Below, piece after piece: positions 26,499 through 41,861 of a stretch of 64,000 bases of DNA. Numbering within the stretch: the first letter of the stretch is position 1; each line of letters begins with the position of its first letter. The notes below the pieces were generated by a model. That model was given only the letters and a program-made list of their open reading frames with translations. It did not search any database and was not told the DNA's origin. Source of the DNA: Bacteroidia bacterium (GTDB taxonomy: Bacteria > Bacteroidota > Bacteroidia > AKYH767-A > OLB10); NCBI GenBank assembly GCA_036274495.1, contig DASUFP010000039.1:11303-75302 (forward strand). The letters run 5' to 3'. Position numbers and translations under genes: made by a program.

Positions 26499-27806
26499 TT
26501 GTATTTCAGCAAATTAATATTTGGAACATCAATTGAAAACGTATTAGGGTCAAACTATAAGCCAAAATCTATGAAAAACACCCTGATTTGCCCAAACTGT
26601 CGCCATGAAATTGATATAGAAAAAGCCTTGTTTGACCAGATTGCTTCACGGCAAAATGCTGAAATTCAACGTAAAAGAAAGGAATTGGAAGCATTAATAT
26701 CCGAACAGGAGAGTGTACTCCAGGAAAGGGAAGCCGAACTGAAAAACAAGATAGCTACTCAGGAGGAAGTTCTGAATTCCAAATTGAAGGAAAGGGAAGC
26801 CCAGATGAAAGAAAAACTCCGGTTGGAAATTTCCGATTGTTTAAGGATGGAAGTGGAAGAAAATAGGTTGAAAATGGAAGAGCAAAAATCCGAACTTAAC
26901 GCTCTTAAAAAAAGGGAGTTGGGTTTGCTCAGGGAGAAAGAAAAACTGGAGCAGGAACGCCAGGATATGGAATTAACTTTACAGCGCAAACTCACGGAAG
27001 AAAAAACCGCCCTGGAGGAAAGAGTTCGGAAACAAGAGCAAGAGTCCAACTTTCTCAGAAATCAGGAAAAAGATGAGCTTATTAATAATCTGAATCTCCA
27101 AATGAGCGATATGAAGCGCAAGTTGGAGCAGGGCTCCATGCAAAGCCAAGGTGAAATCCTCGAGCTGGAGTTGGAACGGATGCTGACAGCGCAATTCCCC
27201 TTTGATGATATCAGGGAGGTACCAAAAGGGGTAAACGGAGCGGATTTAGTTCAGGAAGTTAAGAATATTCGTCAGCAAAAGTGTGGTAGCATTTTATACG
27301 AAACCAAACGTACGAAGAACTTCAGTCCGACCTGGATTGATAAACTGAAATCCGACCAGCGAACTGTAGCTGCTGAAATAGCAGTACTCGTAACAGAAGT
27401 TCTACCAAAAGGAATGACACATTTTGGTTTGATGAATGGAGTTTGGATTTGTACATTTCAGCAAGTAAATTCACTGGTATTGGCACTCAGAGAAGGGTTA
27501 TTACAGATACAAGATGTCCGAGCTTCCGGTGAAAACAAATCCGGCAAGATGGCGCAGCTTTACGAATACCTAACCAACCAAGAATTTGCAGGGCAAATTC
27601 AGGCAATAGTCGACGGATTTGTGGGACAAAAAGATTTGCTTGAACGGGAAAAACGGTCGATGCAAGCTGTTTGGAAGCAACGAGAAAAACAAATTGAGAT
27701 GTGTACACAATCCGCCATAAGCTTATATAGCACCATTAAAGCTATTGCAGGGCACAATTCGATTTCAATTTCTTCATTGGAATTGCCAATTAACCAATTG
27801 ACCTAA
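26499..27806 (+). CDS. DUF2130-like protein (N-terminal zinc ribbon, long coiled coil, conserved C-terminal domain). The likely start is MKNTLICPNC at 26571
   Basis: CPNCRHEID zinc ribbon, a ~180-aa Glu/Lys/Leu-rich coiled coil and a conserved C-terminal region. It is the first gene of the plus-strand defense operon. Confidence 0.5.
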   Translation: MYFSKLIFGTSIENVLGSNYKPKSMKNTLICPNCRHEIDIEKALFDQIASRQNAEIQRKRKELEALISEQESVLQEREAELKNKIATQEEVLNSKLKEREAQMKEKLRLEISDCLRMEVEENRLKMEEQKSELNALKKRELGLLREKEKLEQERQDMELTLQRKLTEEKTALEERVRKQEQESNFLRNQEKDELINNLNLQMSDMKRKLEQGSMQSQGEILELELERMLTAQFPFDDIREVPKGVNGADLVQEVKNIRQQKCGSILYETKRTKNFSPTWIDKLKSDQRTVAAEIAVLVTEVLPKGMTHFGLMNGVWICTFQQVNSLVLALREGLLQIQDVRASGENKSGKMAQLYEYLTNQEFAGQIQAIVDGFVGQKDLLEREKRSMQAVWKQREKQIEMCTQSAISLYSTIKAIAGHNSISISSLELPINQLT

Positions 27807-27844: not shown

Positions 27845-30391
27845 ATGAGTGAAGACAATAATTCATCACAAAATTTTTTTAATACAATACGTTCGATACG
27901 TTCATTAGCACATATTTATGCAACAAATAGTGTTTTACTTTTTTTCTTTTACCTGAAGAGACTTGGATTGATTAATGACAAGTTGCTGTCGAGCAAATCT
28001 CAACTCAAATTTAATCTGCATAAAGCCATTCAAAATTCTTACAATTCAGATAGGATACTATATTCGGAACTTCAAATACTCTACAAGCTAAATGAAGAAA
28101 ATATTAATAACATACCCGAAGCTATATTAAATCAGATTCTGGGTAACATTGTTAACCTTGAGGATAGAGCAGATAATTTGATTATTAAAAATAATGTTGA
28201 ACAACTTATAAGTTCAATGGTCTCTACAAATGATAGAGAAATCGGATTATCATTTATGCCGTCGGAAGTGACAAAATTAATGTGCCAATTATCAGAAGCA
28301 AAGTCTGGCGATTATGTATATAATCCCTATGCCGGATTAGGCTCCTTGGGAGCGTATTTACCTCAAGACATTCATTTTATTGGGCAAGAATTAAATAAGA
28401 GCACATGGGCATTAGGATTTTTGAGAACTACCTTAGGCATGAATAACCCCAATTACAAATTTGTACAAGGTGATTCAATTGATGATTTTGGCTGCTTCAA
28501 ATACATTAATGAAAATCCCTATAAGTTTAAAAATTGGAATCAAAATAAACTTTACAGCCATATAATTTCCTGTCCTCCATTTGGTCTGAAAACTGCCTAT
28601 AGTGGAAAAAATGGAGAAATAATATCCGTATCATCCGAATTTCATTTGATTGAATCGGGAATTAAACTTTTAAGCAATAACGGAAAGCTCATTGCATGTA
28701 TTTCAAATGGATTTTTATTCAGACAAGGCAAGGAGGCTGAATTAAGAAAATATTTGGTAGAAAACGATTTGATTGAAACAGTCATATCACTTCCAAGCAA
28801 TCTGTTGTATAATACAGCTATCCCTACTTCCATCTTGTTAATTAATCAAAACAAGGCATTGAAAGGAAAAATCAAATTTATAGAAGGAAGACAATTAATT
28901 AGCACAGAAGATTTGCGACTTAATGTGTTGGATTTTGAAAGGATATTGAATTTATCCACATCAATTAATGATGGAGAATATCTCAGAATCGCTCCTATGG
29001 AACTGGTGGCACTTAATGAATACAATTTAATGCCCTCCAGGTATTTTCAAAAGTTTATTCCAGGAGAGCCCTTGAGCAATTTCTGTGAAATATTAAGATT
29101 TGGAAGAGATGAACAGTCATTAACTGGAAAATTTATTAGAATCCGAGACTTAAAGGGGGACCCGGCAGATTTTAGAATTAACACAAATAGCATTGCTGAA
29201 ATAAAATTACCATCGTATGCTGTTAAGATTAATAAATCCTGTCTTTTGGTTAGCACAAATTGGAAATCATTAAAACCAACCTATTTTAACTACGAAGGGA
29301 CCCCTCTTTTTTCTGGCAATGACATTATTGCAATTACATTTGATGAAAATAAAGTCAATCTTGGTTTTCTAATTGAAGAGCTTTCGTCTAAGTCTATCTT
29401 AGAACAAATAGATTTGTTGACAACAGGAACAACAGTTCCCCGATTATCAAAACAAGATTTACTCAATTTAAAGTTAGTACTCCCTCCTCTTGCAGAGCAG
29501 AATGCGAAATTTATGGGATTTATAGCAGGAGTAGCGGAATTAAAAAAAAGGGAGCTTGAATCATTTGCTAAAATAAATGGACTTGAAAATGAATTGTATG
29601 AACAAAATACATTTCTTCGTCACAAATTAGCTGGTCCTGTTAGTAATGCCCTTGGTGCATTTGAAAATATTTTTTCCATTCTCAATAGTGAAGTTGTAAG
29701 TAAACTTCCGGATGTCATGAATTTTAAACTTACTTCGAATCATCTTTATAGTTTGAATGATTATATAAACATACTGAAGAAAGGACTTGATGATATTTCT
29801 GACTCCGTAAAGAAGAAAATTACATTTGACATCAATTTTGCTAATAAAGTTAAATCTCCAATTGACATTCTCGCTTTTATAAACGCATATGTCAAGATTA
29901 AAAAGGAAAATCCAACATTAAATTACTCTATAGATGTAAAGTATGATAGTCCCGGATTTTTAGATGAAAACACTGAAACCGAATCAATAATTTATGTGAA
30001 CGGGAATGAAGAATTACTTACTGATTTATTTGATAATCTCTTAGAAAACGCTCAGGTGCATGCTTTTACCCAAGGAGCAAACAATAGAATCGAATTTTAT
30101 ATAATACCATATATAGTAAATGAAGATAAGCCCGAAATATGTATTTTGGTCTCTAACAATGGTAAGCCGTTTCCAGATGACGATGATTTAGTGTTTTCCA
30201 AAAATGGAAGTAAGGCGGGTCCAAATTCTGGTGATGGATTTGGGGGGTACTATGTTAGTGAGATTATAAAATTTCATGATGGCAAATGGGATATTATAGA
30301 TGAAACAGGACCGGAGGGTTTACCAAATACTGATTTGGCAACAACAATTGATATTACATTACCAGTAATTTCGAGTGATGCAAAAATATAA
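27845..30391 (+). CDS. Fusion protein: HsdM-like N6-adenine DNA methyltransferase domain + HsdS-like target recognition domain + histidine kinase (HisKA H-box + HATPase_c)
   Basis: Methyltransferase motif I VYNPYAGLGSLGAYL. Motif IV ISCPPFGL is a Cys variant of NPPF. The TRD ends with the type I S-subunit signature VLPPLAEQNAKF. The H-box is FLRHKLAGPVSNALGAFENIF. The ATPase N, G1 and G2 boxes are LLENAQVHA, VSNNGKPF and GDGFGGYYVSEII. Confidence 0.75.
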   Translation: MSEDNNSSQNFFNTIRSIRSLAHIYATNSVLLFFFYLKRLGLINDKLLSSKSQLKFNLHKAIQNSYNSDRILYSELQILYKLNEENINNIPEAILNQILGNIVNLEDRADNLIIKNNVEQLISSMVSTNDREIGLSFMPSEVTKLMCQLSEAKSGDYVYNPYAGLGSLGAYLPQDIHFIGQELNKSTWALGFLRTTLGMNNPNYKFVQGDSIDDFGCFKYINENPYKFKNWNQNKLYSHIISCPPFGLKTAYSGKNGEIISVSSEFHLIESGIKLLSNNGKLIACISNGFLFRQGKEAELRKYLVENDLIETVISLPSNLLYNTAIPTSILLINQNKALKGKIKFIEGRQLISTEDLRLNVLDFERILNLSTSINDGEYLRIAPMELVALNEYNLMPSRYFQKFIPGEPLSNFCEILRFGRDEQSLTGKFIRIRDLKGDPADFRINTNSIAEIKLPSYAVKINKSCLLVSTNWKSLKPTYFNYEGTPLFSGNDIIAITFDENKVNLGFLIEELSSKSILEQIDLLTTGTTVPRLSKQDLLNLKLVLPPLAEQNAKFMGFIAGVAELKKRELESFAKINGLENELYEQNTFLRHKLAGPVSNALGAFENIFSILNSEVVSKLPDVMNFKLTSNHLYSLNDYINILKKGLDDISDSVKKKITFDINFANKVKSPIDILAFINAYVKIKKENPTLNYSIDVKYDSPGFLDENTETESIIYVNGNEELLTDLFDNLLENAQVHAFTQGANNRIEFYIIPYIVNEDKPEICILVSNNGKPFPDDDDLVFSKNGSKAGPNSGDGFGGYYVSEIIKFHDGKWDIIDETGPEGLPNTDLATTIDITLPVISSDAKI

Positions 30392-31544
30392 CGTGATTTG
30401 GTTTGACGACCAATTTGACACATTAAATATCATACGAGAAGAAGCCCATTTAGCTGGCATTTCACTTGTTGGATTTTCTGACGCTCAGTCTGGTTTGCAT
30501 GAATTAGAGAAAAATTCACATTTGTATGATGCAGCCTTAGTCGATGGGAATTTCTTCATTAAACCTGGATTAAATTCTGACCAAGTTAGTGATGAAGCTC
30601 TTGACATTGTAGCTAAAGCTTTTCTTAGGCTTGAAACAAAAAAAATTATCCCATGGTTTATTCTTTCTGGTCAAGCCAATTTTACAAAAGGTGGAAACAA
30701 GTATGCTGATGTATATAAAAATGGAGAAGTTTTTGACAAAATAAATGAAAGTTCTCGTCAGGAATTATGGAATAAAATAAAAGAGGCAGCAAACCATCAA
30801 CCTGACACTCAACTTCGGCACAAATATCGTATGATTTTTGAGTTGTGCGATGAGAATTATCTGGGTATACATATGTCTGAAACATTGATGGGATTGATTC
30901 ATTTGCTTAAAGATGATTCAGAAGTGGAGCAAGGACTCCAATCTTGGAATACAATCCGGAAAGTAATTGAAAGATGTTTCATTGTACTTAACCGAATTGG
31001 CTTAATACCAGATGAGATAAATCGAACTTCTGGAAGTATAAATGGGTCAGGCTTGTTTTTGGCGGGCAAGCATTCCGATTTTCGATTGAAAAAAGAAATA
31101 GCTCCACCTGTAATTAATTTTATGATTCATAATTTGTTAGAACTTACACAAGACGGCTCTCATTCAAAAGAAGAATTAAAGCTTAAAGTAGATTTATTTG
31201 TAAAAAATCAACCAACCGGTTTTCTATTTAAAAGTAGCATTTATCAACTTTTGGAGATTCTAATTTGGCTTAAGAGCATTATTGACACTTATCCATCAAT
31301 AGATGACAACAAAAACCTTATTGAACTTCGAAGCGTCTCAAATACTGCCATTTATGAAGGCGAAATTGAACAAGACGAGCGTAAAAATTTTCACTGTGGA
31401 GAATATTTGTTAAACTTTCGTTTAGTAAATGAAAGTTACAAGGTTGGTGATATTATCAGAATATTGGATTTCACCTCTAACAACAATTCAAGAACAAATA
31501 TTTTTTATTCAAAATTTGCAACTAAATTTATAAAGATAACTTAA
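30375..31544 (+). CDS. Receiver (REC) domain protein with ~250-aa C-terminal domain of unknown function (candidate output/effector). It overlaps the kinase-fusion gene by 17 bp
   Basis: N-terminus VIWFDDQ...YDAALVDGNF...IPWFILSGQ...TKGGNK fits the REC Asp-Asp/Asp/Ser-Thr/Lys pattern. The C-terminal part is unassigned. Confidence 0.5.
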   Translation: MMQKYNVIWFDDQFDTLNIIREEAHLAGISLVGFSDAQSGLHELEKNSHLYDAALVDGNFFIKPGLNSDQVSDEALDIVAKAFLRLETKKIIPWFILSGQANFTKGGNKYADVYKNGEVFDKINESSRQELWNKIKEAANHQPDTQLRHKYRMIFELCDENYLGIHMSETLMGLIHLLKDDSEVEQGLQSWNTIRKVIERCFIVLNRIGLIPDEINRTSGSINGSGLFLAGKHSDFRLKKEIAPPVINFMIHNLLELTQDGSHSKEELKLKVDLFVKNQPTGFLFKSSIYQLLEILIWLKSIIDTYPSIDDNKNLIELRSVSNTAIYEGEIEQDERKNFHCGEYLLNFRLVNESYKVGDIIRILDFTSNNNSRTNIFYSKFATKFIKIT

Positions 31545-31551
31545 TAATCTC

Positions 31552-33027
31552 ATGACCCAAAAACAACTCGAAGACTACCTGTGGGGCGCAGCCAACATCT
31601 TGCGTGGAATGATTGATGCTGCCGATTTCAAGCAGTATATTTTTCCTTTGCTGTTTTTTAAACGAATCAGTGATTTGTGGGATGAGGAATTTGAAATTGC
31701 CAAAGTGGAGAGCGGTGGCGACTTAAAATACGCTGAGTTTGCCGAAAATCATCGGTTCCAGATTCCGAAAGGATGTCATTGGAACGATATCCGAAAAAAG
31801 ACGGTGGATGTAGGAGCCGCTTTGCAAAAGGCATTAACCGGTATTGAGAAGGCTAATTTTGAAATGCTACATGATGTATTTGGTGATGCCCAATGGACGA
31901 ACAAACGCCGGATGAGTGATGAAAAAATGCTCGACCTAATAGAACATTTCAGTAAAATGAATTTGAGTGTGAGTAATGTGCCCCACGACTTGATGGGGGA
32001 AGGGTATGAATACCTCATCAAAAAATTTGCGGATGACAGCGGGCACACGGCTGCGGAGTTTTATACCAATCGCACTGTGGTAAAACTCATGACCCAGATT
32101 ACAGACCCCAAAAGCAAAGAGAGTATATACGACCCGACATGTGGAAGTGGCGGAATTTTACTAAGTGCTGCCCTACATTTGAAAGAGCAAGGTAAAGAAT
32201 ACCGAACATTGAAGCTGTACGGACAGGAGTTGAACCTGATAACCTCTGCTATTGCCCGTATTAATATGTTTATGCATAACGTGGATGAGTTTCTTATTGT
32301 CCAAGGCGATACCCTTGACAGCCCACAAATTCTTGAAAACGATGAGTTGAAGCAATTTGATGTTATTATGGCCAATCCTCCTTATAGTGTAAAGAAATGG
32401 AGCCAGAAAAAGTGGATGAATGACCCTTTTGGACGTAATATCTGGGGTACGCCTCCCCAGGGTTGTGCCGATTATGCCTTCCAGCAGCACATTATGAAAA
32501 GCCTGAACCCTGTTACAGGACGTAGTGTGGTATTGTGGCCTCACGGAGTATTATTCCGGGATGCGGAAAATGAAATCCGTAAAAAAATGATTGAGGAAGA
32601 TTATGTGGATGCGGTTATCGGGCTTGGGAAAAATCTGTTTTACAACAGTAGTATGGAAAGTTGTTTGCTGGTGTGTAGGATGAAAAAGCCAAAGGAGCGA
32701 AAAGGAAAGATTATTTTCATTGATGCCAAAGATGAACTTAGAGTTGAGCGGACTAATGCCTGGTTGGAGCCACAGCACATTAAGAAGATAAGCGATGCAT
32801 ATTGGAAGTTTAAAGATATTGACGGTTTTGCCAAAGTAATCTCTAATAAGGAAGTGTTGGTTAACAATGGTAATCTCAGCTTACCACTCTACGTGAAGCA
32901 ATCTACTAATGCATCTGAACACAATACTCAAGAGTTAATTTCCGAAATTAAAGATAGACAGAAACAAATCAATAAGTCTATTGATAATTTGGTTGCTCAT
33001 CTTAAACAAATTGGAATAGAATCATGA
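31552..33027 (+). CDS. hsdM: Type I restriction-modification system methyltransferase subunit HsdM
   Basis: HsdM N-terminal domain LEDYLWGAANILRG. Motif I YDPTCGSGGIL. NPPY motif MANPPYSV. Confidence 0.9.
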   Translation: MTQKQLEDYLWGAANILRGMIDAADFKQYIFPLLFFKRISDLWDEEFEIAKVESGGDLKYAEFAENHRFQIPKGCHWNDIRKKTVDVGAALQKALTGIEKANFEMLHDVFGDAQWTNKRRMSDEKMLDLIEHFSKMNLSVSNVPHDLMGEGYEYLIKKFADDSGHTAAEFYTNRTVVKLMTQITDPKSKESIYDPTCGSGGILLSAALHLKEQGKEYRTLKLYGQELNLITSAIARINMFMHNVDEFLIVQGDTLDSPQILENDELKQFDVIMANPPYSVKKWSQKKWMNDPFGRNIWGTPPQGCADYAFQQHIMKSLNPVTGRSVVLWPHGVLFRDAENEIRKKMIEEDYVDAVIGLGKNLFYNSSMESCLLVCRMKKPKERKGKIIFIDAKDELRVERTNAWLEPQHIKKISDAYWKFKDIDGFAKVISNKEVLVNNGNLSLPLYVKQSTNASEHNTQELISEIKDRQKQINKSIDNLVAHLKQIGIES

Positions 33028-34184
33028 AGTTGAATAAGCATAAGTGGGGTTCGGTTAAGCTTTCCGAGGTTTGCGAAAAAACTCAAAATGTTGATATACG
33101 CAAGCAATCAGGAATATTCAGTTATATTGATATTGGGTCTATTAATTCTGATGCAAAAAGAGTATCTGAAGTCCAAATGCTGAATTGGTCAGAAGCTTCT
33201 TCAAGAGCAAGACAAATAATTCATAAAGGAGATACTCTTTTTTCAACTGTACGAGTCAATCTCGAAAGAATTGCGTTTATTGATAAGGAAATTCCTAATG
33301 CGATTGCCTCTACTGGATTTACTGTTATAAGAGCCAATAAAAAGGCTTTGCCAGAATTCTTATTTTACTCAACAAGTTCTCCGGAATTTATAGAAAGACT
33401 TTGCAAATTGCAAAAGGGGACTGCTTATCCTGCGGTTTCTGATAGAATAGTCTTTAATGAAGTTATTCCCCTCCCCTCACTCGCCGAACAAAAGCAAATA
33501 GCCGAATTATTTCAAAGCATTGAAGCTGCCATGGAACAGGTGGAGGGGCAGGAGAGGAATTTGAGGACACTTCAAAAATCCTTAGTCAATGGCTTAGTTG
33601 GCAAAAAACCAGTCTTTGGAGATTTATTGAACGCAAAAAACTGCACCCCTACAACCTTTGGTGAAATAGCCGAGTGCGACAAAAAGTACCCTGAGCATGA
33701 ATTAGAGGCGGAACGGTTTGTTGGTTTGGAGAATATTGAGGCTGATAACTTTCAACTGCTTGGTTATGGATTAGTTGCCAATGGAACCACTTTTTCCAAA
33801 CGGTTTTGCACTGGAGATGTATTGTTTGGGAAGCGAAGAGCATACTTAAAAAAAGTTGCAGTCGCAGATTTTAATGGTATATGTTCAGGTGACATCCTGG
33901 TAATAAGAGCTAAGGCTAAGAAAATGCTGCAGGGGCTTTTGCCATATTATATTTCAGCAGATGCATTCATTCAACATGCCGTCAGTACTTCTGCAGGCTC
34001 TTTATCTCCACGGACCAAATGGAAAGATTTAGCTGACTTCGAGATTTCAATACCTGATATAAAAACACAGGAGAAAATACTGGCAATCCTTAGTCAGTTT
34101 GATAATACTATTAATCAGCTCAAACAGCAGAAGGTGACATTGAAAAATTTGAAGCAAAAGTTACTGAATGAGATTTTGGGGTAA
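33024..34184 (+). CDS. hsdS: Type I restriction-modification system specificity subunit HsdS (two target recognition domains)
   Basis: Two TRDs separated by the conserved PLPSLAEQKQIAELF region, with C-terminal LKQKLLNEIL. The gene overlaps the end of hsdM. Confidence 0.85.
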   Translation: MKLNKHKWGSVKLSEVCEKTQNVDIRKQSGIFSYIDIGSINSDAKRVSEVQMLNWSEASSRARQIIHKGDTLFSTVRVNLERIAFIDKEIPNAIASTGFTVIRANKKALPEFLFYSTSSPEFIERLCKLQKGTAYPAVSDRIVFNEVIPLPSLAEQKQIAELFQSIEAAMEQVEGQERNLRTLQKSLVNGLVGKKPVFGDLLNAKNCTPTTFGEIAECDKKYPEHELEAERFVGLENIEADNFQLLGYGLVANGTTFSKRFCTGDVLFGKRRAYLKKVAVADFNGICSGDILVIRAKAKKMLQGLLPYYISADAFIQHAVSTSAGSLSPRTKWKDLADFEISIPDIKTQEKILAILSQFDNTINQLKQQKVTLKNLKQKLLNEILG

Positions 34185-38882: not shown

Positions 38883-41861
38883 ATGTCATTTAATGAACTT
38901 AATGCGGTAGAACATTTTATCATTCACCAGTTAACCGGTGTAAATCTGAATGATGTTCAAAAGAGTCGTGCGGAAGATGGTCCGGTATCGTATGCAAACG
39001 AACCGAAGTGGAGATATGTTCAATCTGAACTGCTAAAACGGGATATATCTGATGTACTGCTGGAATCCGAATTGAAGGATGCTCTTTACAGATTAAATCC
39101 ACAGTTGAATGGTAGCTCTGAAAAGGCAGATGAAATAATTCATAAACTCAGAGCGATTCTAATAACAGTTAACAATGTAGGACTTGTAAGAGCTAACGAA
39201 GAGTTTTCAAAATGGCTCCGTAATGAAATGACGTTGCCTCTTGGTAAGAATCATGAACACATCACCATCAGGTTAATTGACTTTGAGCAGGTAGAAAACA
39301 ACAGTTATATTCTAACTAACCAATTAAACTTTCGGGCACGGGAAACTAAAATTCCTGACATCGTAATGTATGTCAATGGTATTCCGCTTGTAATTGGCGA
39401 AGCGAAGACACCGGTACGTCCTGCCGTGACCTGGTTTGATGGTGCCCATGACATTCATCAAATTTATGAGAATGCAATACCGCAACTATTCGTCCCAAAT
39501 ATCTTTTCATTTGCAACGGAAGGCAAAGAGCTGTTCATTGGTGGTGTCCGAACTCCACTTGAATTTTGGGCTCCCTGGCGAATTGAAGTCGAAAAAGACG
39601 AACTAAGTCATTTTGCCGGTCTGAACGATGTGGCGAAACAGCTAACACACTTGCTGAAACCCTCAACTGTTCTGGATATTCTCCAGTTCTACACAGTTTA
39701 TGCAACCAGCAGCAAGAAAAAGAAAATCAAAGTGGTGTGCAGGTATCAGCAATATGAGGGCGCAAATGGTATTGTGGAGCGTGTGAAAGAGGGGAAAATC
39801 AAGAAAGGACTCATTTGGCACTTCCAGGGTTCCGGTAAATCGTTGCTGATGTTGTTTGCAGCTCAGAAATTGCGAAAACAGCAAGACTTGCATAATCCTA
39901 CGGTCTTGATAGTGGTTGACCGAACCGACCTGGATACTCAGATAGCAGCAACTTTTAATACTGCCGAGGTTCCCAACATGGTTACAACCGACAACATAAA
40001 GCAACTGCACAAATTACTCGAACAAGATACCCGCAAAATCATTATCACCATGGTTCACAAGTTCAAGGAAGCGTATGCTGATATGAACACACGGGAGAAC
40101 ATCATTGTGATGGTGGATGAAGCTCATCGAACGCAAGAAGGTGATTTGGGTAGAAAAATGCGAAGCGCACTTCCAAATGCTTTTCTTTTCGGACTAACCG
40201 GTACTCCCATCAATAAAGCAGATAAAAACACTTTCTGGGCTTTTGGAGCTGAGCAGGATTCGGGAGGATATATGAGCCGGTATACTTTCCAGGACAGCAT
40301 CCGTGATAATGCTACCCTACCATTACATTTTGAACCCCGATTACCAAATTATCATATCGACAAAGAAAGTCTCGATGTTGCTTTCAGGGAGATGGCAAAT
40401 GACCTAAGTGAAGAAGACCGGAATAAACTTAGCCAGAAGGCTGCAAATATGTCGGTCTTTCTAAAATCTCCTGAGCGAGTAAAAACCATTGTTGCCGATA
40501 TCGCAGAACATTTTAAAGCACACGTTGAGCCGGAAGGTTTAAAGGCGATGATAGTTACTCCGGACAGGTATGCTTGCATCCAGTACAAGGAAGAACTGGA
40601 TAAACTCATGGGTGCTGAATGCAGTGCGGTTGTTATCAGTACATCCGCAAACGATGATTATGAATTCAAACAGAAATGGGGACTTGATAAAGATGCACAG
40701 GAAAAGGTGGTGGAGAAATTTAATGATTCTGATTCGCCATTGAAGTTTCTCATTGTGACAGCCAAACTTCTAACAGGGTTCGATTCTCCCATTCTGCAAA
40801 CCATGTACCTGGATAAATCATTAAAAGACCATACTCTCCTACAAGCGATTTGCAGAACAAACAGACTATTTCCCAATAAAACATTTGGTAGAATCGTAGA
40901 TTATTTCGGTGTGTTTGACGATACAGCCTCTGCCCTGGCGTTTGACGAAGCCAGTGTAAAGGCAGTTATCACTAATTTACAAGAGTTGCGTGACAAATTA
41001 CCTGAGTGGATTGACAAATGCCTTTCTCATTTCTCTGGAGTTGATAGGACTCTTGGCGGATTTGAAGGATTACAAAAAGCTCAGGATTGTATTAACACAA
41101 ATGAGAAGCGTGATGCATTCGCCAAAGACTACAGCAGCTTGTGCAAATTATGGGAAGCCCTTTCACCTGACCCGGTATTAAATCAATATCAGAAAGATTA
41201 CAAATGGCTGTCGCAGGTATATACAAGTGTAAAACCTGCTTCAGATGATAATGGCCGTTTGCTCTGGCATGCACTTGGTGCACAAACAACAGCTCTAATT
41301 CACGAACACATTCATGTTACAGGCATCAACAAAGAGATGGAAGAGTTGGTGCTGGATGCCGAAGTGATTGATGACTTAATGAATAAAAAAGACCCAAACA
41401 AGGCAAAGAAAGTGATGATTATATTAATTGGCCGTTTGAAGAAACACGGCAATAATCCAATCTTTAAAAAGCTAAGTGAACGACTGGAAATCATACGTAG
41501 CAAAGCAGAACAAGGCCTCATTAATTCAGTTGAGTTTATCAAGGAACTGTGTCAAATTGCGAAGGAGACACTGCAGGCGGAAAAAGGCATTGAAACTAAA
41601 GTCGAGCAGAAATCTGGCAAAGCTGCACTAACTGAATTGTTTTTGGAATTAAAAACCGACACCACTCCAGCAATCGTAGAACGAATCGTTAATGACATTG
41701 ACGAAATCGTTCGAATTGTCCGTTTTGACGGATGGCAGGATTCTACGGTAGGCGAGCGGGAAGTGAAAAAAGAACTCCGGAAGGTGCTTTGGACAAAATA
41801 TCAAATAAAAGATGAGGAGTTGTTTAATAGGGCGTATGATTATATAAGGGAATATTATTAA
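38883..41861 (+). CDS. hsdR: Type I restriction-modification system restriction subunit HsdR
   Basis: SF2 helicase motif I FQGSGKS and DEAH box VMVDEAHRTQ. Length 992 aa. It directly follows the hsdM/hsdS cluster. Confidence 0.9.
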   Translation: MSFNELNAVEHFIIHQLTGVNLNDVQKSRAEDGPVSYANEPKWRYVQSELLKRDISDVLLESELKDALYRLNPQLNGSSEKADEIIHKLRAILITVNNVGLVRANEEFSKWLRNEMTLPLGKNHEHITIRLIDFEQVENNSYILTNQLNFRARETKIPDIVMYVNGIPLVIGEAKTPVRPAVTWFDGAHDIHQIYENAIPQLFVPNIFSFATEGKELFIGGVRTPLEFWAPWRIEVEKDELSHFAGLNDVAKQLTHLLKPSTVLDILQFYTVYATSSKKKKIKVVCRYQQYEGANGIVERVKEGKIKKGLIWHFQGSGKSLLMLFAAQKLRKQQDLHNPTVLIVVDRTDLDTQIAATFNTAEVPNMVTTDNIKQLHKLLEQDTRKIIITMVHKFKEAYADMNTRENIIVMVDEAHRTQEGDLGRKMRSALPNAFLFGLTGTPINKADKNTFWAFGAEQDSGGYMSRYTFQDSIRDNATLPLHFEPRLPNYHIDKESLDVAFREMANDLSEEDRNKLSQKAANMSVFLKSPERVKTIVADIAEHFKAHVEPEGLKAMIVTPDRYACIQYKEELDKLMGAECSAVVISTSANDDYEFKQKWGLDKDAQEKVVEKFNDSDSPLKFLIVTAKLLTGFDSPILQTMYLDKSLKDHTLLQAICRTNRLFPNKTFGRIVDYFGVFDDTASALAFDEASVKAVITNLQELRDKLPEWIDKCLSHFSGVDRTLGGFEGLQKAQDCINTNEKRDAFAKDYSSLCKLWEALSPDPVLNQYQKDYKWLSQVYTSVKPASDDNGRLLWHALGAQTTALIHEHIHVTGINKEMEELVLDAEVIDDLMNKKDPNKAKKVMIILIGRLKKHGNNPIFKKLSERLEIIRSKAEQGLINSVEFIKELCQIAKETLQAEKGIETKVEQKSGKAALTELFLELKTDTTPAIVERIVNDIDEIVRIVRFDGWQDSTVGEREVKKELRKVLWTKYQIKDEELFNRAYDYIREYY

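Follow-up and report, generated by a model that had tools for sequence, protein, structure and literature searches.

The window, i.e., the whole 64,000-nt stretch of DNA that was analyzed (Bacteroidia bacterium, assembly GCA_036274495.1, contig DASUFP010000039.1, positions 11,303 to 75,302 of the forward strand), carries a gene for a predicted sensor kinase and an overlapping gene for a receiver-containing partner, followed by the genes of a type I R-M system (Table 1). The partner gene is counted here from the ATG at 30378, which the public record (P0121) also uses; its overlap with the kinase gene is then 14 nt, and the 17 bp given in the preliminary description hold for an alternative GTG start at 30375. 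The sensor protein looks cytoplasmic, a hydrophobic segment not being evident in its sequence.

Table 1. Features of the kinase-receiver locus (positions in the window; aa, residues of the respective protein).
Feature	Position	Strand	Remarks
DUF2130 protein	26571..27806	+	zinc ribbon, coiled coil and DUF2130; 38 nt upstream of kinase gene
Sensor protein (ORF1)	27845..30391	+	848 aa, ATG; HsdM-like MTase, single TRD, DHp, GHKL ATPase
N6-adenine MTase domain	28199..29053	+	aa 119-403; Pfam N6_Mtase E 2e-34; HsdM structures E 4e-58 (family profile)
Single HsdS-type TRD	29054..29509	+	aa ~404-555; Pfam Methylase_S, PADLOC Specificity_I models, HsdS structures
Helical linker and DHp region (dimerisation/phosphotransfer)	29510..29989	+	candidate phospho-acceptor His593, nt 29621-29623
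GHKL catalytic ATP-binding domain	29990..30388	+	Pfam HATPase_c; N, G1-like and G2 boxes
Partner protein (ORF2), REC, HEPN-fold and OB fold	30378..31544	+	388 aa counted from ATG
Receiver domain	30378..30791	+	aa 1-138; Asp10/Asp11, Asp56 (nt 30543-30545), Ser97, Lys121
HEPN-fold helical domain (probable)	30801..31313	+	aa ~142-312
C-terminal small beta-barrel, cold-shock/S1-like OB fold	31320..31541	+	aa ~315-388
hsdM, canonical type I methyltransferase	31552..33027	+	NPPY intact; start 7 nt after receiver gene
hsdS, two-TRD specificity subunit	33024..34184	+	
hsdR, type I restriction subunit	38883..41861	+	inserted genes between hsdS and hsdR

The four-part fusion proposed earlier (methyltransferase, TRD, H-box and GHKL ATPase) was recovered within one 848-aa ORF, and all of the motifs quoted for the two proteins were located. 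The methyltransferase domain carries motif I as NPYAGLGSL (AGLGSL at residues 163-168), a conserved Gln-Glu at residues 181-182 and, as motif IV, CPPF (residues 243-246, nt 28571-28582) where the family consensus is NPPF. The Pfam Methylase_S match covers residues 459-554 (24.5 bits, cut-off 22), the family profile matched the HsdS structures 5ybb and 3okg (E 2e-14), and the TRD ends in VLPPLAEQ (residues 545-552), which continues into a conserved helix.

The C-terminal part of the sensor contains RHKLAGPVSNALG at residues 592-604, including His593, followed by an N box (NLLENAQVHAF), a G1-like box (SNNG, in which Asn replaces the Asp usual in kinases) and a G2 box (GDGFGG). Among the Pfam searches suggested previously, N6_Mtase and Methylase_S gave matches, HisKA and, in the partner protein, Response_reg gave none, and HATPase_c (residues 721-840) was borderline: 24.5 bits for the whole protein, just below the cut-off of 26.4, 27.2 bits for the C-terminal fragment alone, and matches in 15 of 16 family members. 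A profile of the C-terminal 290 residues of the family covers both the DHp and CA domains of solved histidine kinases (VicK, 4i5s, E 3e-14; HK853, E 5e-13), and the family's invariant His aligns with their phospho-acceptor His (SHELRTPL). His593 is invariant in all 80 family members, as is each of N735, F741, N771, G773, G798 and G800, and outside the family the kinase core comes closest to ordinary HAMP/PAS-HisKA-HATPase_c kinases. On these sequence features, the 848-aa protein is proposed to be a soluble, dimeric HisKA-type histidine kinase.

The receiver domain of the partner protein, undetected by Pfam, NCBIfam and PADLOC, carries WFDD, LVDGN (with the phospho-acceptor Asp), ILSG and the Lys of VFDK. 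Its AF2 model (pLDDT 89) has the (beta-alpha)5 fold, and the best Foldseek matches were all response-regulator receivers (PorX, FixJ, ArlR, VanR and KdpE); 84-85 of 85 homologues keep the receiver residues unchanged. The ∼250-aa region beyond it, left unassigned in the preliminary description, was resolved into a probable HEPN fold and a CSD/S1-like OB fold, and is not of a PNP, NADase or DNA nuclease fold. The helical domain holds an invariant Arg194 (nt 30957-30959) and an invariant His262 (nt 31161-31163), found in 84-85 of 85 sequences, together with a near-invariant Glu198. The Rx4-6H motif that defines canonical HEPN domains is absent from it, its Foldseek scores are non-significant (E ∼0.1-0.4, with Roquin and sacsin among the top matches), and catalytically inert HEPN domains exist; called by fold alone, it is a probable RNA-cutting domain. 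The terminal OB fold matches RNA-binding domains of Rho and RNase R, and homologues match Pfam CSD/S1 families; it is missing in ∼16-19 of 87 homologues.

The same four-part sensor architecture occurs in ∼80 full-length homologues, ∼50 full-length ones being present in the protein collection, and for this reason a frameshift artefact was rejected as the origin of the ORF. In 85 of 87 loci the kinase and receiver genes lie side by side, spaced by -86 to +25 nt with frequent overlap. The pairing is far beyond chance, given these counts, and the receiver protein can be regarded, as first suggested, as the cognate partner.

The survey also bore out the proposed defense setting, in that the cassette lies in defense islands of Bacteroidota, flanked by AbiE, GmrSD, pAgo, CBASS-STING, Schlafen, viperin, SoFic and retron-type RT genes. 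Integrases, a relaxase and primase genes around it indicate carriage on integrative elements. An hsdM gene follows within 6 kb in 53 of 72 loci, usually in the order hsdM-hsdS-hsdR, and in many loci it overlaps the receiver gene or starts 1-20 nt after it. The link to R-M is not obligatory, since a type I system within 6 kb is lacking in the other 19 loci; the pair is followed by other defense genes where there is no hsdM. Of 69 loci, 55 have a WYL/WCX (BrxR-like) regulator gene no more than 3 kb upstream. None is present in the window, in which the upstream neighbors are a DUF2130 gene and a divergently transcribed sigma-54 activator. The DUF2130 protein is possibly an accessory component; 10 of 87 loci have a DUF2130 or RmuC gene beside the pair.

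The methyltransferase domain had been suggested to be a catalytically dead reader, which does not hold for the family as a whole: a canonical (N/D/S)PP(F/Y/W/L) motif IV is kept in 47 of 80 members, and CPPF occurs only in a small subclade, comprising the window protein and three homologues (L009, L010 and L035). The CPPF domain of the window may itself bind or flip adenine abnormally. A type I system is adjacent in 42 of 44 members with the canonical motif, versus 9 of 23 with a degenerate one (42:2 versus 9:14). The fused TRD is not hypervariable, its mean identity (33%) being close to that of the fused methyltransferase domain (31.5%), whereas the conservation of HsdS falls well short of that of HsdM in the same loci (27% versus 48%), and no specific similarity was found between the fused TRD and the neighboring HsdS TRDs in eight loci. 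Sequence reading in the manner of an R-M specificity subunit, as originally envisaged, is therefore doubtful. Since the kinase residues are 100% conserved, 33 of 80 members (41%) have lost the methyltransferase catalytic Asn and the TRD is not hypervariable, the methyltransferase/TRD input is proposed to act as a sensor rather than merely as an enzyme.

The module resembles Detocs, Ambrosia and PrrC in its logic and belongs to none of them. Detocs (DtcA/DtcB/DtcC) established that a relay from a histidine kinase to a REC-effector protein can be a defense system (10.1101/2023.01.24.525353), and this analogy, drawn previously, stands in its logic: a cytoplasmic histidine kinase, a receiver with an effector domain in place of the usual DNA-binding output, and location in defense islands, the Detocs effector domains being swappable. 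It fails in the components, since Detocs has a TPR-based sensor, a stand-alone receiver (DtcB) as third gene, and PNP ATP nucleosidase, REase, TOPRIM or TM effectors, in contrast to the HsdM-TRD sensor and HEPN-OB output of the window pair, and no PADLOC model matches the kinase core, REC domain or output domain of the pair. A DtcB-like buffer against auto-activation is absent from the pair. In Ambrosia, a methyltransferase, HATPase, REC and nuclease work together (10.1101/2025.09.30.679545); this and the Response_reg_2 plus HEF_HK (paraMORC-type) elements (PMC8011034) likewise combine a methyltransferase, a GHKL/kinase-like ATPase and a receiver in one defense cluster that is headed by a dedicated transcription regulator. 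However, the three are separate proteins in those systems, with a wHTH on the REC, an HNH nuclease, a partner R-M of type II or IV and hosts drawn mostly from the Proteobacteria; the window proteins gave no match to Pfam HEF_HK, Response_reg_2 or HATPase_c_3. PrrC-EcoprrI (and RloC) place a HEPN anticodon nuclease within a type Ic R-M operon (PMC3710099), i.e., a HEPN-fold effector tied genetically to hsdMSR and thought to be a second line upon restriction evasion. Unlike the window pair, PrrC is an ABC-ATPase-HEPN fusion with a canonical Rx4-6H, restrained by touching the R-M enzyme directly, and has no kinase, receiver or methyltransferase fusion. The WYL gene directly upstream in most related loci recalls the BrxR-type regulators that head defense systems (PMC9122601), although the window cassette differs in this respect. 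The gene pair itself was not described in the literature searched, in agreement with the original impression, and public records name the proteins just "N-6 DNA methylase" and "hypothetical protein". Conserved and heading R-M operons in Bacteroidota, it looks like an undescribed immune signaling module.

Our tentatively preferred reading, for which we claim somewhat less than even confidence, is a type I R-M-linked defensive phosphorelay, in which a kinase that reads DNA or its methylation would activate a REC-HEPN-OB RNase. The input of the kinase would be a miniature type I methyltransferase core. As in M2S1 cores built from half-size HsdS subunits or M-S fusions, an HsdM-type gamma-class methyltransferase is followed by an HsdS-type TRD and a conserved helix; with one of each per chain, a kinase dimer would therefore have two methyltransferase domains and two TRDs. 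The sensor differs from these cores in lacking an HsdM_N match, in scoring 80 bits against an hsdM equivalog cut-off of 243 and, across the family, in a motif I without the second Gly in most members, the frequently degenerate motif IV, the TRD that is not hypervariable and the kinase C-terminus. The helix that ends the TRD appears to continue into the DHp helix bearing His593, so that a ligand of the methyltransferase/TRD module could set autophosphorylation; we infer both the nature of this signal and its polarity, candidate ligands being DNA whose target adenine is unmodified, or something else filling the DNA groove. The phosphoryl group would pass to Asp56 of the neighboring protein. Since receivers usually dimerise when phosphorylated, and since HEPN RNases work as dimers, phosphorylation is proposed to start RNA cleavage, during which the OB fold would grip single-stranded RNA. 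As a putative anti-phage outcome, translation or phage gene expression would be halted, providing a second line of defense after the type I enzyme. The WYL/BrxR-type regulator, which the window lacks, would control the cassette in most genomes.

It is unlikely, but deserves weight, that the pair is not an effector and instead regulates the downstream defense operon post-transcriptionally or through its activity. The kinase would monitor methylation of the host genome, e.g., when the island reaches a new host or upon DNA damage; phosphorylated REC-HEPN-OB would bind or process operon mRNA, or serve as a CSD-type antiterminator, and restriction would be delayed or damped until modification is complete, as with C proteins or restriction alleviation. 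The position of the cassette at the head of the operon, its mobile surroundings and the correlation of the canonical methyltransferase motif with an adjacent type I system all suit such a portable regulatory head, as do the other defense genes that replace hsdM. CSD/S1 folds are well known as RNA chaperones or antiterminators, but the homologues without an OB fold lack this part entirely, and the invariant Arg/His pair of the helical domain suggests an enzyme more than a binding scaffold. The WYL protein, usually in front, accords with a regulated operon and at the same time already supplies transcriptional control. Classical transcriptional regulation of the R-M operon is unlikely because a DNA-binding output is absent and hsdM in many loci lies so close to the receiver gene that no space is left for a regulated promoter or attenuator; both points also count against the operon-regulator reading.

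Conservation of the fused TRD, unrelated to the neighboring HsdS TRDs, and a catalytic Asn that is dispensable in 41% of members would also fit a constant ligand other than DNA. The methyltransferase/TRD module might mimic the type I DNA-binding core as a guard or decoy, with phage DNA mimics or inhibitors (Ocr, ArdA, Stp-like) switching the kinase toward the HEPN effector, in a PrrC or PARIS logic run through a phosphorelay; the PrrC nuclease is indeed set free when its type I partner is blocked by T4 Stp (PMC3710099). We regard this as improbable: a pure decoy has no need of the adenine-binding motif, which is canonical precisely beside type I systems, and a conserved DNA motif would explain the TRD equally well. 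Least credible, to the point of being nearly dismissed, is an ordinary modification enzyme with a paraMORC-kind GHKL ATPase, devoid of phosphotransfer and adjoining an unrelated hypothetical protein. GHKL (MORC-type) ATPases are known R-M partners (PMC8011034), and the Pfam results for HATPase_c and HisKA would agree with one, but the profile match spans the DHp and ATPase domains of true kinases and places the invariant His at their phospho-His, and HATPase_c_3, HEF_HK and Response_reg_2 went unmatched. Moreover, the phospho-acceptor pocket of the neighboring receiver is intact, and its gene accompanies the kinase gene in nearly all loci.

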